A stretch of DNA of 64,000 nt. Origin: an uncultured Methanosarcinaceae archaeon (lineage in GTDB: Archaea > Halobacteriota > Methanosarcinia > Methanosarcinales > Methanosarcinaceae). The position numbers and the translations under genes were made by a program. The notes beneath the pieces are model-generated. The model was not told the origin of the DNA, did not search any database, and saw only the letters and a program-made list of their open reading frames with translations. The DNA lies in the NCBI GenBank assembly GCA_963833425.1, contig CAWHXP010000002.1, positions 224,001 to 288,000 on the forward strand, written 5' to 3'. Below are positions 4,972-44,845 of this stretch, in pieces (the stretch's first letter is position 1; each line of letters opens with the position of its first letter).

Positions 4972-5046
4972 GGGCTCGTGGCTTAGCCTGGATATAGCAC
5001 TGGGCTTCTAACCCAGACGTCGGGGGTTCAAATCCCTTCGAGCCCG
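4972..5046 (+). tRNA. tRNA-Arg (anticodon TCT)
   Basis: Acceptor stem GGGCTCG/CGAGCCC, anticodon arm CTGGG-CTTCTAA-CCCAG, T-loop GTTCAAATC; no intron, CCA not encoded. Confidence 0.95.
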
Positions 5047-13937: not shown

Positions 13938-14023
13938 GCGAGAGTTGCCCAGCCAGGTCAAAGGCGATAGACTTAAGATCCTTTTACGAAAGTAACTATG
14001 GGTTCAAAATCCCACCCCTCGCA
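13938..14023 (+). pseudogene. Degenerate tRNA-Leu(TAA)-like sequence
   Basis: Acceptor GCGAGAG/CCCTCGC-A with a mismatch, leucine-type D-arm GCCCAGCCAGGTCAAAGGC, CTTAAGA loop; anticodon stem ATAGA/TCCTT has 2 mismatches; T-loop has an extra A. Confidence 0.75.
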
Positions 14024-14540
14024 CTAAAATAGAAGGTAATAGGGATCTTTAAAAAAGTTTACGCAACTGATAAATTCTTACCGTACAGTTTTCAAAATAT
14101 TATATTGTTTATTAACTAAATTAAACTCGTTTTATCATTTTATTTAAATAAAAGTAGGTCTTTTGTACACAATTGCTCTATATTAACAGCACTGTTCTAA
14201 CAATTATATGCCTTAACCTGATCTTCATTTGTATTCGGTTAAGATACAATCTATAAGAAATATGTTGTTTTTGTTATTTCCTACAAAAATACCATGTATG
14301 ATTGAGAATACAAAAGAATGATCCGCTATAATGGAGAAAAGTAGTGATAAAAAAACATCCTTCTCTTTGTAGTCCTTTTGGCAATAATATCAGGCTGTCT
14401 GTTCAGAAAATAGCAGATTTAAGATTCTGTCTATATGGCATTTCAGGAGAGGTCTAAATCCATAAGTTCAGCGTGAAAAGAAACTCTAAAATGGAGCTGA
14501 CCATCACTGTAAAATAAGATCAAAAGGATAGCAATTTCAA

Positions 14541-39774: not shown

Positions 39775-41316
39775 TTAGCTCTTTTCTTTATTTTTGTAGA
39801 GCAAATTCATTGCATTCACGAGGGCTTCTACAGAAGCCATAACTATATCTGGATTTGCAGATCTAGCAGTTACAATTCTGCCTTTTTCGTTTTCAAGACC
39901 TATATATACGTCTGCAAGGGCATCTGCTCCTCCAGTGATGGCATCGATTCTGAACTCCTGAAGTTTGAAGTGGTTATTCTCTCCCAGGATATCTCTTACC
40001 GCATTGAGGGCGGCATCTACAGGGCCAACCCCTACTCTTGCAGCAATGACTTCTTTGCCTTCGATGTCTGCTTTGACAACAGCAGTGGGCGTAAGGATAT
40101 TTCCGGTCATCACGGATACTTCTTTAAGCTTGATAAGTTCTTCTTCGGAGCTTGCTTTCCCGAGTACTGCAGAAGCAACAGCATAAAGGTCAACATCTGT
40201 GATCTGTTTGCCCTTATTTGCAATCTCCTTGATCCTGTACACTATTTCATCGAGTTGCTTATCATTGGTTATTATTCCTGCAGATTCAAGGGACTGTTTA
40301 ACTGCATGTTTGCCTGTATGTTTTCCAAGAACAATACGTCTTCTGTGACCTACCATTTCCGGAGTCATTATTCCAGGCTCGAAAGTATCGGATTTCTCAA
40401 GCACTCCCTGGCTGTGGATCCCAGACTCGTGGGAAAAAGCATTTTGGCCTACTACAGGAGTGTTTGGAGGAAGCCTGATTCCAGTATAGTTTTCAATCAT
40501 TTTTGAAGTTTCCACAAGGTATTCGGTCTTAATGTTTGTTTTTATCCCATAAATTGCCTTAAGACTCATAACTGTCTGTGGAAGGTCGGCATTTCCGGCT
40601 CTCTCTCCTATGCCATTTATAGTGACCTGGACCTGAGATGCTCCGGCTTCGACAGCCATGAGGCTGTTTGCTACCGCAAGTCCAAAATCGTTATGGCAAT
40701 GCACATCTATAGGAATTGTTATTTCAGTTGCAATGTCTTTTATCTGCCTGTACATTGCCGACGGGACCATAATGCCAACAGTATCTGGCACGTTGATTAT
40801 ATCGCATCCTGCTTCTTGGACCGCCTTGAAGACATCTATGAGATACTCTGGATCAGTCCTAGTTGCGTCCATTGCAGAAAACATGCACTCCAGACCATGG
40901 TCTTTGATATACTGGACAGCTTCCACAGCCAGTTGGATAACTTCTTCCTGGCTTTTTTTGATAGTGTATGTCCTTTGAACGTCTGACGTGGGGACGAAAG
41001 TATGCACAAGGCCAACATCGCTTTCGAAACATGCATTTATATCTTTCTTCAACACACGAGCAAGTCCACAAATTACAGCACCCAGCCCGGCATTAGAGAT
41101 CGATTTTATAGATTCCTTGTCGCTTTCTGAAGAGACTGGGAATCCCGCTTCTATTATGTCTACCCCGAGTTTGTCAAGTTGTTGGGCAATTTCCAGCTTC
41201 TGAGCAGAATTCAGGGATACTCCAGGAGTTTGTTCTCCGTCGCGCAGTGTAGTGTCAAAAATAGTTACCGTTTTATTCTGTAGGGATTCGATGTAAAAAT
41301 CGATCCCTTCTTTCAG
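39775..41316 (-). CDS. leuA: 2-isopropylmalate synthase (LeuA/CimA family); start site atypical
   Basis: The frame is open 87 codons upstream of the tracked start and includes IFDTTLRDGEQTPG and IEAGFP; also HCHNDFG, GIGERAGNA, HESGIH and a C-terminal regulatory domain (GVGPVDA). Citramalate synthase is not excluded. Confidence 0.85.
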   Translation of the reverse strand: MKEGIDFYIESLQNKTVTIFDTTLRDGEQTPGVSLNSAQKLEIAQQLDKLGVDIIEAGFPVSSESDKESIKSISNAGLGAVICGLARVLKKDINACFESDVGLVHTFVPTSDVQRTYTIKKSQEEVIQLAVEAVQYIKDHGLECMFSAMDATRTDPEYLIDVFKAVQEAGCDIINVPDTVGIMVPSAMYRQIKDIATEITIPIDVHCHNDFGLAVANSLMAVEAGASQVQVTINGIGERAGNADLPQTVMSLKAIYGIKTNIKTEYLVETSKMIENYTGIRLPPNTPVVGQNAFSHESGIHSQGVLEKSDTFEPGIMTPEMVGHRRRIVLGKHTGKHAVKQSLESAGIITNDKQLDEIVYRIKEIANKGKQITDVDLYAVASAVLGKASSEEELIKLKEVSVMTGNILTPTAVVKADIEGKEVIAARVGVGPVDAALNAVRDILGENNHFKLQEFRIDAITGGADALADVYIGLENEKGRIVTARSANPDIVMASVEALVNAMNLLYKNKEKS

Positions 41317-41329
41317 TTCTTACATTCAT
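41273..41329 (-). CDS. 18-codon leader ORF (MNVRTERRDRFLHRIPTE) overlapping the 5' end of leuA
   Basis: ATG at 41329 after AGTGAT, ~30 nt downstream of a TATA box; the leuA frame is +1 relative to it. Confidence 0.6.
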   Translation of the reverse strand: MNVRTERRDRFLHRIPTE

Positions 41330-41359
41330 GGTAATCACTACATGGATGCACATTCCTGG

Positions 41360-41367
41360 TATATAAA
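41360..41367 (-). promoter_or_regulatory. Candidate TATA box (TTTATATA) of the leuA transcript
   Basis: Matches the archaeal TATA consensus; predicts a TSS near 41335-41337. Confidence 0.55.
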
Positions 41368-41998
41368 TATCATGTGTGTTTGCGAATTTTTTGACAATTC
41401 CGTTTTTCGCTCTTTACTTCAGTGGTTGAAACCCAAACTTGGCAGAACATACTATTTATAACGCATAAATGGGCTTTAAGGTTCAGTTTCCTCACATATT
41501 TCAAAGTTTCATATTGCACAAAGTTTCTTATTGCATTTTTTGATTTTTGACATTTTCCATTTTTCTGAAAGATTATGTGTCAACAAAACGCATTTTTAGC
41601 AAGAAAACATTGTACTAATCATGGTATATGTCAAGTTCAGGGATAGGAAAAATTTAATGATATTTTGATTCCACATATTGTTTTATTTAAGTCCTTCTGC
41701 AGTATTTTTGATTATTTCCTTTGATTCTTGATTTATGTCGGGTTGACATCGATTGTTAATCATTCGAAGACTTGTGAAAAAAACGATTCTTTAGTTTACA
41801 CTGGAAATCGATCATATTGATCTCTATTTAGGCAAATTTAAAGTTTTATCTATAAGATTAATAAGTAACGGATTCAGAGCTTATTGATATAATCAATAAT
41901 TAAATCGCTAGTACATTAGTTCTATTTGAAGAATGTTGGCTGTGTTAGCTCCTAAAGTTCTCCTAAAGAGCCTAAACGGTTATATTTAACGCTTTTAT

Positions 41999-42110
41999 GG
42001 CTCACGCGCTCAATATGCACAATTAAACACAATATGGGTTGTGGCTAAACTGATTTTTTAGACAATTGAATGTTTGTTGCGATTGGTTTTTCTGCTTATC
42101 TGTGTAAGTC
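41999..42110. mobile_element. Diverged inverted copy of the 1517-1627 MITE
   Basis: GGCTCACGC..GTTGTGGCTAAACTGATTTTTTAGACAATT..TGTGTAAGTC resembles the reverse complement of 1517-1627. Confidence 0.45.
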
Positions 42111-42505
42111 ACAAATATTTAAGTTCCAGTTAGGGTTATTCAGTTAAGTCGTTGATAAAAATGGCATTAAATATAACTTGAGATTAATGCAATTGAATCG
42201 GGAAGTAGGAATAATAAGAATCAATCACCTAAATGTCAATAATTCTCGAGAGATTATAGGATTTTATTTTATCCTAACTGCTTGGTTCTAATTAATTGTA
42301 AATTTGTGGGCATCGGGAATTTGCGAAGAACAAAGCCCTTAAACAATAATTGAAGCAGCCGCCAGTTTTGAATCTAACTCGCATAATAATAATAAAAAGT
42401 ATTCATAAATTTAAACTAATAATGCATACTTTTAATCCATGTATATTCTTCACTGTTGTTTATATTCTACAAGCTTTAAAGCTTGTTGATGTGTCAATTG
42501 ACTAG

Positions 42506-42554
42506 AAAACTATAAATATAGCATCTCTTGTTATGTCATATTTTGATATATCAA
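42506..42554 (+). promoter_or_regulatory. BRE/TATA (GAAAAC-TATAAATA) and palindrome TTGATATATCAA upstream of padR
   Basis: Perfect 12-bp palindrome at 42543-42554, at the expected TSS. Confidence 0.5.
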
Positions 42555-42579
42555 CTTTCGAGATGTTGAGGCTCGAATT

Positions 42580-43029
42580 ATGCAAAACAAAATGTGTACA
42601 GAGATCAGGCGGGTTTTTCTCAAGTATATAGTTCTGAAGATTATTAAGGAGAAGCCTACCCATGGCTATGATATAATAAAGATCATCAAGCTCCGCTCGA
42701 AAGGGTGCTGGACTCCAAGTACAGGTTCTATCTATCCAATACTGGAAAGCCTAGAGTCAAACGGCTTAATCCAGAGTAAAGAGATAGAGGAGCGCCGCAA
42801 GAAGGTGTACTCAATCACCTATACAGGAATAGTGGCGCTGGATCACATGACACAGAAGAGGTTGGAGCTCCTGGATGAAATGTCTCAGATCATCAATATT
42901 ATGACTGAAGGTAATGACAGTAGCGATGCTGGTGGTAAAGTCGGCAATAACCATAGCTCGGATCAGCAGCCTGAAAAAGCACACAATGGCAATTCTCAGA
43001 CTCTACAAACAGATGATGATAGAAGGTAA
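42580..43029 (+). CDS. PadR-family transcriptional regulator
   Basis: [36 protein letters not shown]. Confidence 0.9.
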
Positions 43030-43033
43030 CAGG

Positions 43034-44845
43034 TTGAGCGAAAATAGTGATATAACAGACAAAGTGATCGCTGGAAGATTATGGAAAGGCGTTGGATACA
43101 AGTGGATTGCACTGTTCAATGTGACCTTAGCAACTTTGATGGGGTCTACCGATAACAGCATTGTTCTGATCGCGCTGCCTACGATATTTAAGGGCATACA
43201 GATTAACCCTATGTCTCCTGACGTATTTCAATATCTTCTGTGGATCCTGATGGGCTATGGGCTGGTAACTGCAACGCTGCTCCTCAGTTTCGGGCGACTT
43301 GCGGATATGTATGGTCGGGTGAAACTTTTCAGATTGGGTTTCCTTATATTTGCTATTGGATCAACCCTACTTTACCTTACTCCAAGCACCGGTAACACAG
43401 GTGCACTGGAACTGATTATTTTCCGGTTCATACAGGCCGTGGGTAGTGCGTTCACCATGTCAAACGGTGCAGCTATTATCACAGACGCTTTTCCGGCTAG
43501 TGAGAGGGGAAAGGCCCTAGGCATAAATATGGTTGCTTTTATGTCTGGTCAGTTCATTGGCTTATTGTTGGGTGGAGTGCTAGCAGTATATAACTGGAGA
43601 TATGTGTTTTTAGTCAGCGTCCCATTTGCTATATTTGGGACAATATGGTCTTACTGGAAGTTAAAGGAAGTTTCTTTCCGTGCACCAAAAACAAGCATCG
43701 ATTTCTTGGGCAATTTGGTCTTCATTGGTGGGCTAACATCTCTGCTAGTTGGTGTAACCTATGGCCTGATGCCGTACAAGCATGATGGCATCACCGATGC
43801 TATGGGCTGGGGAAACCCCTGGGTAATTAGGGCAATCATTGTTGGCATACTACTTTTGATTATTTTCCCATTTGTAGAGAGCAAGGTGAAGAATCCTATG
43901 TTCAGATTAGAGTTCTTTAGGATCCGGGCTTTCACCTACGCAAATCTCGCCAGCTTCTCAGCAGCTATTTCGCGGGGAGGCGTCATGTTTATGCTTATTA
44001 TGCTATTGCAAGGTATCTGGCTGCCACTTCATGGTTATCGCTTCGAAGATACACCTTTTTGGGCAGGTATCTACATGCTTCCCATGACTTTTGGATTTGT
44101 CGTTATGGGCCCTATCTCGGGGATGCTTTCGGATAAGTATGGGCCAAGATGGATCGCTACCTGTGGAATGACCCTTGTGACTCTAGTCTTTATTGGGCTT
44201 TCAATGCTTCCCTATAACTTTGATTATTGGGAATTAGGACTCCTAATTTTCCTAATGGGTGCTGGTAATGGCATGTTTAGCTCTCCTAATAGTTCGTCAG
44301 TCATGAACTCAGTGCCACCGCAAGATCGGGGCGTAGCATCTGGTACGATGTTCACACTAACAAGTTCGGCCAATACGGTAAGTATGGCTGTGTTTTTCAC
44401 TATTGTTATCGTAGGCATCAAGGGAGCTTTTCCAGGAGCTATACATGACTATTTCGCTAGCCTTGGATCCTTACAGATTAATCCCATTGTGCAACAACTC
44501 GCAGGCCGGCTAGCTAGCATGTCACCGACCAACGCGTTATTCTCTGCTTTCCTAGGGTACAATCCAATGGGCTCAATCCTGGACTCCATGGATCCTCATA
44601 TCGTCAGCGAGATACCGCAACAGATCGTGACCACCCTAACAAGCAGATACTGGTTCCCACAGACGTTGCAACAGGCTTTTATGCCAGCGCTTCAGCTTGC
44701 GTTCAGAATCGGAGCTGTACTCTCAGGCATAGCTGCGGTATTGTCTGCAATGAGGGGCAAACGATATGTTCACGAAACCCATTTCTCAGCTAACGATGTT
44801 AGCAAAAGTGGTATTGAAGGAAGAGGAAAGAGGGAGCAGACTTGA
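43034..44845 (+). CDS. MFS drug:H+ antiporter (DHA2/EmrB-QacA-like, ~14 TM)
   Basis: [29 protein letters not shown] motifs. Likely start is TTG at 43034, just after the padR stop. Confidence 0.9.

Follow-up and report, generated by a model that had tools for sequence, protein, structure and literature searches.

The 64-kb window analysed here, a stretch of DNA from an uncultured Methanosarcinaceae archaeon, carries on its minus strand a leuA gene whose reading frame has no usable start codon of its own (all coordinates refer to window numbering). The product scored 768.9 bits against the NCBIfam model NF002085 (2-isopropylmalate synthase; cut-off 517) and under the cut-off of TIGR00977. It contains the motif DTTLRDGEQ, and domains PF00682 and PF08502 are present in its relatives. 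By family profile, the gene is assigned to 2-isopropylmalate synthase (LeuA), with citramalate synthase the less likely specificity; no paralogue was found within the 64-kb window. The LeuA frame is open from the stop codon TAA at 41322-41320, and no ATG, GTG or TTG occurs in it before the catalytic motif DTTLRDGEQ (D at 41256). This agrees with the preliminary description of this DNA, according to which the frame is intact yet lacks a usable start ahead of the motif. A short leader open reading frame (ORF0) overlaps leuA one base behind the LeuA frame (-1), and only its first 11 codons would enter LeuA. The arrangement suggests that LeuA is probably made by an obligatory programmed +1 ribosomal frameshift on a run of T residues, both in the window genome and in Methanosarcinales generally; that a frameshift of some kind serves leuA appears quite likely.

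Relatives were collected by a protein-guided scan with one genome per species. It gave 546 relatives, and the best 80 loci were used, all of them from Methanosarcinales (Methanosarcina, Methanolobus, Methanomethylovorans, Methanoperedens, Methanohalobium, Methanosalsum and other Methanosarcinaceae). Two loci were dropped, L022 with an NN gap over the leader and L028 with unrelated upstream DNA, leaving 78 loci and the window, or 79 sequences. In L022 (1380-1600) the gap replaces the whole leader from the TATA box to the catalytic motif. L028 belongs to a Saccharibacteria-binned contig in which a Methanosarcina-type leuA meets unrelated DNA exactly at the T run (1380-1560), and is likely a chimeric assembly. 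The nearest relatives, L023, L001 and L002, showed 96-97% protein identity to the window LeuA.

Between the leader ATG and the site, the leader frame (0) was open in 79/79 sequences, the LeuA frame in 3/79 and the third frame in 39/79. From the site to DTTLRDGEQ, the LeuA frame was open in 79/79 sequences, the third frame in 2/79 and the leader frame in none of the 79. A clean frame switch was confirmed in 78/78 informative loci from at least six genera. A conserved in-frame start accompanied by the loss of the leader ORF or of the TTT-TTA site was looked for among the orthologues and was not found. In Methanomethylovorans, the LeuA frame opens at GGG after TGA and the leader frame closes at TAA after TTA; the overlap of the two frames is thereby limited to AGG GAT CGT TTT TTA, and the switch is pinned to 15 nucleotides (nt).

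Sequence variation past the site follows the LeuA frame. Over positions +7 to +45, variability in four clades was highest at the third LeuA-frame position, lower at the first and lowest at the second. Codon variants were counted in 75 of the 79 sequences, representing five clades (L038, L041, L062 and L078 were left out). The first seven LeuA-frame codons contained 23 synonymous and 16 amino-acid variants, the latter mostly conservative (I/V, E/D, P/S, M/L/I, K/E); the same bases read in the leader frame gave 6 synonymous and 26 amino-acid variants, besides stops. This coding signature directly after the site indicates that translation as LeuA already covers the stretch ahead of the "annotated" ATG. 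An in-frame indel makes Methanosarcina one codon shorter than the others from the site to the catalytic motif.

The switch coincides with a near-invariant block, AGG GAT CGN YTT TTA Y, present in 79/79 sequences. TTT occupies the P site in 62 sequences and CTT in 17; all 79 have the Leu codon TTA in the A site, followed by C in 68 and by T in 11, and the base ahead of the T run is a pyrimidine in every sequence. The run itself is T5 in the window, T6 in some genera and T4 (CTTTTA) in Methanoperedens (17 sequences). The site CGA-TTT-TTA-CAT (41302-41291) and the fused reading MNVRTERRDRF-YIESLQNKTVTIFDTTLRDGEQ, obtained when TTTT (41299-41296) is read as one step, are present as the preliminary description had claimed, and the conservation of the slip site with a Leu codon in the A site held in all 79 sequences. 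The predicted trans-frame LeuA has 517 amino acids (aa; 11 + 506).

The purine-rich part of the block, AGGGATCG, ends 2 nt ahead of the P-site codon. Its columns had an entropy of 0-0.23 bits over the 79 sequences, wobble positions of both frames included, and the only free base was the third position of the 0-frame Arg codon CGN (1.53 bits), which yields D, A or V in the LeuA frame. As a control, the wobble columns of DTTLRDGEQTPGVSL, whose residues are invariant, had entropies of 0.4-2.0 bits. The five LeuA-frame wobbles of the block were less variable than random five-position control sets in each of three clades taken separately (Methanosarcina, P = 0.00035; Methanolobus, 0/20,000 draws; Methanoperedens, 0/20,000 draws). 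By this comparison, the conservation of the block is in excess of coding needs. The pattern AGGGATCG-N-YTTTTAY occurs a single time in the 64-kb window, and no further copies of the block with the full site were found elsewhere in 310 kb of orthologous loci. Window genes have AGGAG-, GGTGA- and AGGTGAT-type motifs ahead of their starts.

Table 1. Features of the leuA leader region and related homologues.
Feature	Position or entry	Strand	Description
TATA box TTTATATA, leuA promoter	41360..41367	-	assigned from the sequence
ORF0 (leader ORF), 0 frame	41273..41329	-	ATG 41329, MNVRTERRDRFLHRIPTE, stop TAA 41275-41273; 18 codons
ATG-TAA "start-stop", LeuA frame	41320..41325	-	4 nt after the ORF0 ATG; sole in-frame ATG 41325-41323, TAA next
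Purine-rich block AGGGATCG (0-frame AGG GAT CG-)	41301..41308	-	candidate Shine-Dalgarno-like stimulator; 5' arm of the hairpin
Hairpin AGGGAUCGAU[UUUUAC]AUCG-A-AUCCCU	41282..41308	-	slip site in loop UUUUAC
Slip heptamer TTT_TTA_C (putative)	41293..41299	-	P-site TTT 41299-41297; A-site Leu TTA 41296-41294
CTA (Leu) at the usual annotated ATG position (..EP-M-QNK..)	41281..41283	-	from orthologue comparison
Main leuA reading frame	39775..41298	-	slipped TTT to stop 39775-39777; +1 relative to ORF0
Extension-bearing homologues	P0138, P0148, P0155-P0157, P0066, P0073, P0125-P0131		

The TATA box at 41367-41360 and the ATG at 41329 opening MNVRTERRDRFLHRIPTE, both recorded earlier, were found in the sequence; a GTG at 41338 shares the ORF0 frame. 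The out-of-frame leader ATG is kept in 79/79 sequences, always in the leader frame and at a variable distance, the number of codons to the P-site codon being 10 (61 sequences), 9 (2), 8 (1) or 7 (15). Changes in the length from ATG to site are whole codons in every case. Among the 74 sequences where a TATA-like hexamer was found, its end lay 28-33 nt ahead of the leader ATG in 67. In Methanolobus psychrophilus, the B recognition element (BRE)/TATA is located about 19-22 nt from the mapped transcription start sites (TSSs), and the 5' untranslated region (UTR) is shorter than 10 nt in about 16% of transcripts, as given in the part of that report used here (PMC5378194). Taken with this promoter geometry, the TATA spacing suggests a 5' UTR of roughly ≤10 nt for the leuA leader, and the leader ATG would then be the first AUG of a nearly leaderless mRNA. 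leuA is not listed among the mapped TSSs in the portion of the M. psychrophilus supplement examined (PMC5378194).

Start codons in the LeuA frame are not conserved. A canonical one is missing from 42/79 sequences, occurs only downstream of the site in 28/79 and lies upstream in 9/79; on a FastTree protein tree this state switches at least seven times, and the site is lost 0 times. A check of annotated and canonical in-frame starts across Methanosarcinales therefore found them unconserved. The codon following the ATG of the start-stop pair is a stop in most Methanosarcina loci and TAC (Tyr) in L007, L024, L026 and L033. M. mazei MM_1284 also has ATG-TAC, and RefSeq places the gene start there, according to supplement file 6 of PMC11456600, a source used in part. 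In the M. mazei group, ATG-TAC, which opens the LeuA frame from that ATG, either provides a leaky way around the proposed switch or is neutral.

At the position usually annotated as the start, where the window has CTA, the 32 Methanosarcina-clade sequences have ATG in 27 cases and CTA or CTG in 5. The clade of the window (window, L001, L002 and L023) branches from within Methanosarcina that have the ATG, which indicates that this codon was lost and the gene kept. The "start" codons annotated in Methanolobus, written as M by NCBI's pipeline, are ATA, CTA or GTA, depending on species, and the codon preceding them is CTT, CTA, CTG, ATT or ATA; no conserved start is found there. Gene callers disagree on the start of leuA, placing it at MQNK.., at TTG, at V or L, at ATA/ATT written as M, or at MRGIVFY.. 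(ATA in L078). Among the database clusters of the product that were listed, 19/51 are 467-aa proteins starting downstream of the catalytic motif. The predictions P0082-P0117, P0030 and P0031, of 467 aa or 475-477 aa, begin after DTTLRDGEQ. These truncations arose because gene finders apparently met no start codon upstream.

The frame architecture and its conservation are observed; from them we infer the slip and its exact codon, a function for the upstream block and a response to leucine, as follows. Transcription would start a few bases upstream of ATG 41329, as judged from the TATA spacing, and ribosomes would initiate at this ATG and read 11 codons (MNVRTERRDRF). With the Leu codon UUA in the A site, the P-site tRNA-Phe on UUU 41299-41297 could re-pair one base forward, on UUU 41298-41296. 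The Tyr codon UAC (41295-41293) would come next, and translation would proceed through YIESLQNKTVTIFDTTLRDGEQ... to the 517-aa enzyme. Ribosomes that do not slip would decode UUA and terminate seven codons later at TAA 41275-41273. Just before the slip site, the invariant AGGGAUCG probably serves as a stimulator resembling the internal Shine-Dalgarno sequence of bacterial prfB.

Because leuA opens the leucine pathway and its A-site codon specifies Leu, the arrangement likely serves feedback: scarce Leu-tRNA(UAA) would slow the filling of the A site, slipping would increase and more LeuA would be made. Leucine sensing is an attractive purpose, which we infer solely from the identity of the codon and of the gene. 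An order-wide obligatory "hungry-codon" switch, by which the ribosome would gauge Leu-tRNA(UAA) at the single UUA of a nearly leaderless 11-codon ORF and respond by slipping +1 into leuA with help from the Shine-Dalgarno-like block, can be proposed tentatively. A tRNA-Leu with anticodon UAA, which reads the A-site codon, was detected by ARAGORN at 13938-14024 on the plus strand of the window; the Rfam search of the window at gathering score returned tRNA-Arg at 4972-5046 only and did not report this tRNA-Leu(UAA).

LeuA could also be produced with no frameshift at all if the leader were a regulatory upstream ORF (uORF), acting by stalling or by termination-reinitiation, and LeuA started within its own frame, at ATG or TTG where present and otherwise at the non-canonical CTA 41283, ATC 41304 or 41292, or ATT 41262. 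Annotation pipelines do use ATA, ATT and ATC starts, and the M. mazei paralogue MM_0671 is listed with ATC. ATG, TTG or GTG is found solely downstream of the site in 28/79 sequences, and the Methanosarcina leader stops 5 nt past the downstream ATG, a layout suiting reinitiation. Against this stand the 42/79 sequences that have no canonical start, the loss of ATG in the clade of the window, and Methanolobus, where no position is start-capable throughout (ATA, CTA or GTA; CTT, CTA, CTG, ATT or ATA). Moreover, the four to five codons between the site and the ATG evolve as LeuA-frame coding sequence, no Shine-Dalgarno-like sequence lies at working distance ahead of the candidate start codons, and the exact frame relation of the leader ATG is left unexplained. 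Independent initiation behind a uORF is thus considered unlikely. The same holds for initiation at the Leu codon CTG 41316, an option raised in the preliminary description, since in most other genera that codon stands upstream of in-frame stops. A frameshift might instead take place at AGG_G (41308-41305), where tRNA-Arg would re-pair from AGG to GGG and I-D-F-Y would follow in the LeuA frame; the Leu codon would have no part in it. In most genera, GGG is exactly where the LeuA frame opens, directly behind a TGA, and homologues elsewhere translate a similar ..(G/Q)I(A/V)F(F/Y).. in frame. In addition, the block changes GGG to GGA, seen twice (L001/L002; L037), and ATC to ATT (L077) are silent in the LeuA frame and alter the leader peptide, which leaves room for a slip at AGG_G and counts against the T run. 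However, L001, L002 and L037 have AGG_A, where no re-pairing is possible, and have kept all else. The codon after AGG is GAU, which is not slow, and AGG itself is frequent, at 29% of Arg codons here. Within the block, only the wobble of the 0-frame CGN varies freely, where the LeuA frame reads D, A or V; a pyrimidine precedes the T run in 79/79 sequences, as UUU_U or CUU_U requires; and the 0 frame is open through TTA in all 79, closing right afterwards in some genera. AGG_A in three sequences and the always-pyrimidine base favour the T run, and slippage at AGG_G is quite improbable.

Slippage could equally be sought in transcription, RNA polymerase dropping one U on the T run and bringing the leader ATG in frame in some transcripts; the needed change, minus one base, coincides with T5 here and with T6 in some genera. 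Yet the run is only T4 in the 17 Methanoperedens sequences (CTTTTA), known programmed transcriptional slippage uses much longer runs, and neither the conserved Leu codon nor the 3' base nor the upstream block would be given a role, which makes polymerase slippage highly improbable. As for an artefact or decay, the T run might contain a sequencing error, or leuA might be a pseudogene that recently acquired a nonsense or frameshift mutation. No kind of error is commoner than a single surplus T in a homopolymer, and reading T5 as a single step restores one frame. But the same arrangement is present in 78 independent assemblies from at least six genera, and the gene body is under strong purifying selection, with variation nearly confined to wobble positions. 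M. mazei MM_1284 is well translated, with a Ribo-seq base mean of 3165 and a translation efficiency of 21 in supplement file 6 of the partly used PMC11456600. The likelihood of an artefact or decay is negligible. The recent nonsense mutation considered in the preliminary description is excluded by the conservation of the arrangement. The assembly error named there as a possible refutation was not borne out, since the 96-97% identical relatives L023, L001 and L002 share the arrangement; their common T5 run, TAA and Leu codon in place of the internal ATG exclude an error private to the window assembly.

Several other observations weigh against the T-run frameshift and its proposed regulation. 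TTA accounts for 159/1120 Leu codons (14%) in 33 long window ORFs and is not rare, and the bare heptamer occurs in frame 4 more times in these ORFs. The idea of a rare codon was rejected on account of this average usage, and only leucine limitation would then be left to make UUA slow. Downstream of the site, 28/79 sequences, most Methanosarcina among them, have an in-frame ATG or TTG, and 9/79 have a canonical start (ATG or TTG) upstream, including the M. mazei type ATG-TAC; species with an in-frame start could make LeuA without slipping and may partly bypass the slip. Leader and junction peptides were not found in the M. mazei Ribo-seq and peptidomics supplements searched, a part of PMC11456600, this being a species with an in-frame ATG. 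A fused N-terminus of the ..RDRFY.. type was found in none of 223 database proteins among the matches listed, which is weak evidence; the fused-form query consisted of the first 40 residues of P0121 (149 aa, ending before a second in-frame TTTT at residue 150).

In Methanomicrobiales, homologues are extended in frame at the N-terminus (..KWQIAFFGDK..), and this extension aligns with *GIAFYSDK of Methanolobus. The alignment implies that the leader region descends from coding sequence, and the conservation of the block may be partly historical. The extension of Methanomicrobiales LeuA (..MEKSLQKWQIAFFGDK..) and of other clades (..KRGIVFYITES.., ..MLRGIAFFTDS..) is homologous to the leader and slip region of Methanosarcinales. 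LeuA starts in the ..LRGIAFF.. clade are inconsistent too (M, L or far upstream). Modelled with AlphaFold, the LeuA-frame ORF had predicted local distance difference test (pLDDT) scores below 50 over residues 1-9 of its extension, providing no structural argument either way.

The hairpin placed around the site in the preliminary description stood in some lineages and failed in others. The window hairpin has a folding energy of -11.9 kcal/mol (z = -2.9), and 2/200 shuffles fold as well. Significant folds were also obtained for L003 (z = -2.2) and for Methanolobus L045 (z = -3.2), in which an A-U pair is replaced by C-G, the one compensatory pair. The hairpin was not significant in Methanomethylovorans, Methanoperedens, L034, L062 and L078 (z from -1.0 to +0.8), and RNAalifold found no consensus pairs over the order in 77 aligned leaders. 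With lineage-specific single folds and no order-wide consensus, the hairpin was dropped as a defining part of the site; by these folding results, it is lineage-specific, being significant in Methanosarcina and Methanolobus, and no general requirement. No Rfam family matched the leader at gathering score, nor up to E = 10 over 41150-41500. For the RNA motif upstream of haloarchaeal leuA mentioned in the preliminary description, no Rfam match was found here, and the name "leuA-Halobacteria" was absent from the literature searched. No terminator-like sites were detected in 41000-41600. With one Leu codon in the leader, no terminator and a hairpin unconserved across the order, the locus does not have the features of leader-peptide attenuation.

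Among known recoding systems, the bacterial RF2 gene prfB offers close parallels in layout. RF2 genes have a conserved shift site CUU_U, with UUU_U in a minority; the 3' base is C almost without exception, and a Shine-Dalgarno stimulator is conserved on the 5' side, according to the portion of the 2016 review by Atkins and colleagues used here (PMC5009743). As in prfB, a short ORF0 precedes a functional protein that lies wholly in the +1 frame without a start of its own. The leuA site is likewise UUU_U (62 sequences) or CUU_U (17), C is usual after the A-site codon, and a stretch that resembles a Shine-Dalgarno sequence, putatively a stimulator, lies a few bases upstream. The spacer in leuA is 5 nt after GAGGG/AAGGG, or 2 nt if GAUC pairs too; in prfB it is 3 nt. 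In both cases the A-site codon would be slower when the regulated commodity is short, as part of the prfB literature describes and as we propose for leuA. Unlike prfB, whose A-site codon is the stop UGA, leuA has the sense codon UUA (Leu) in 79/79 sequences; strictly speaking, leuA thus falls outside the prfB type of autoregulatory site and would work alike with a different sensor. The species sensed would be Leu-tRNA, downstream of the LeuA pathway, and not the encoded protein itself. ORF0 before the site also differs in length (7-13 codons versus 25 in Escherichia coli), and the host is an archaeon.

The yeast retrotransposon Ty1 also has a sense codon in the A site: at CUU_AGG_C, the P-site tRNA slips from CUU to UUU while the A-site sense codon is slow, as summarized in part of the same review (PMC5009743). 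Methanoperedens has the comparable CUU_UUA_C. The Ty1 tRNA is permanently scarce and sets a fixed Gag:Pol ratio, whereas the leuA codon is ordinary and its slowness would be conditional. With regard to starvation-specific trans-frame proteins made by slippage at hungry codons, that review, in the portion used, states that "no examples are known" (PMC5009743).

Resemblance to the leaders of the leu operon and of pheL/pheA lies in a very short ORF before the first gene of a pathway, with a codon for the amino acid of that pathway, at which the ribosome senses (in leuA, would sense) charged tRNA. Classical attenuation leaders contain runs of the regulatory codon and act through a terminator and antiterminator. 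leuA differs in having one Leu codon (two in Methanoperedens) and no terminator-like structure, and its leader overlaps and feeds into the gene. Frameshifting in the pheA leader is described as incidental in the part of PMC5009743 consulted.

Antizyme, covered in the portion of a 2021 review used here (PMC8211752), uses a +1 frameshift that responds to a metabolite and acts as sensor and effector at once in biosynthetic feedback, the role proposed for leuA. It differs from leuA in being eukaryotic and polyamine-responsive, with an A-site stop and a 3' pseudoknot, and in making an inhibitor, which gives the feedback the opposite sign. In archaea, the -1 frameshift of Saccharolobus solfataricus fucA1 is the only proven cellular case, and Mg chelatase is a suggested recoding case, both according to part of the same source (PMC8211752). 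Like fucA1, leuA is a cellular archaeal gene split over two frames, which ribosomal frameshifting would join. The fucA1 shift, unlike that proposed for leuA, is -1 on A_AAA_AAT in mid-gene, is found in two strains only and has no known regulatory logic. A prior report of a frameshift in leuA or in Methanosarcinales was not found in the literature searched, and other papers and supplements may hold more. leuA, isopropylmalate and Methanosarcina go unmentioned in the part of the 2016 frameshifting review covered (PMC5009743), and leuA is absent from the main text of the GeneTack survey.

If true, the proposed hungry-codon switch would be the first programmed +1 frameshift in a cellular archaeal gene. 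It would also be the first natural case of starvation frameshifting that produces the very enzyme relieving that starvation, and an archaeal substitute for bacterial attenuation. To our knowledge, classical attenuators are lacking in archaea. The leuA arrangement suggests that decoding may be the step at which archaea link enzyme synthesis to the supply of amino acids. Archaeal recoding is called under-explored in the portion of the 2021 review used (PMC8211752). Conservation of the site over an order of methanogens and methane oxidisers that includes the genetically tractable Methanosarcina makes the proposal directly testable.

The arrangement also affects annotation. leuA is mis-started or truncated by gene callers and curated pipelines, some products lacking the catalytic motif, which affects reconstructions of leucine synthesis; truncated LeuA database entries would pass for inactive enzymes in such metabolic reconstructions. 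Supplement file 6 of PMC11456600, used in part, gives ATC as the start codon (IRFLDTTLRDGEQ..) of MM_0671, the second isopropylmalate/citramalate-synthase paralogue in M. mazei. On this listing, it is likewise without a canonical start just ahead of the catalytic motif. This hints that MM_0671 might have its own leader and slip site, perhaps with an Ile codon, and that the same proposed device may serve the citramalate/isoleucine branch.

Upstream of the leuA promoter, about 1.2 kb (41370-42580) contains no ORF of at least 60 aa in any frame and no Rfam match. Beyond 42580, the plus strand carries a small ORF (42580-43029) followed by a 643-aa ORF (42914-44845) with a hydrophobic sequence.

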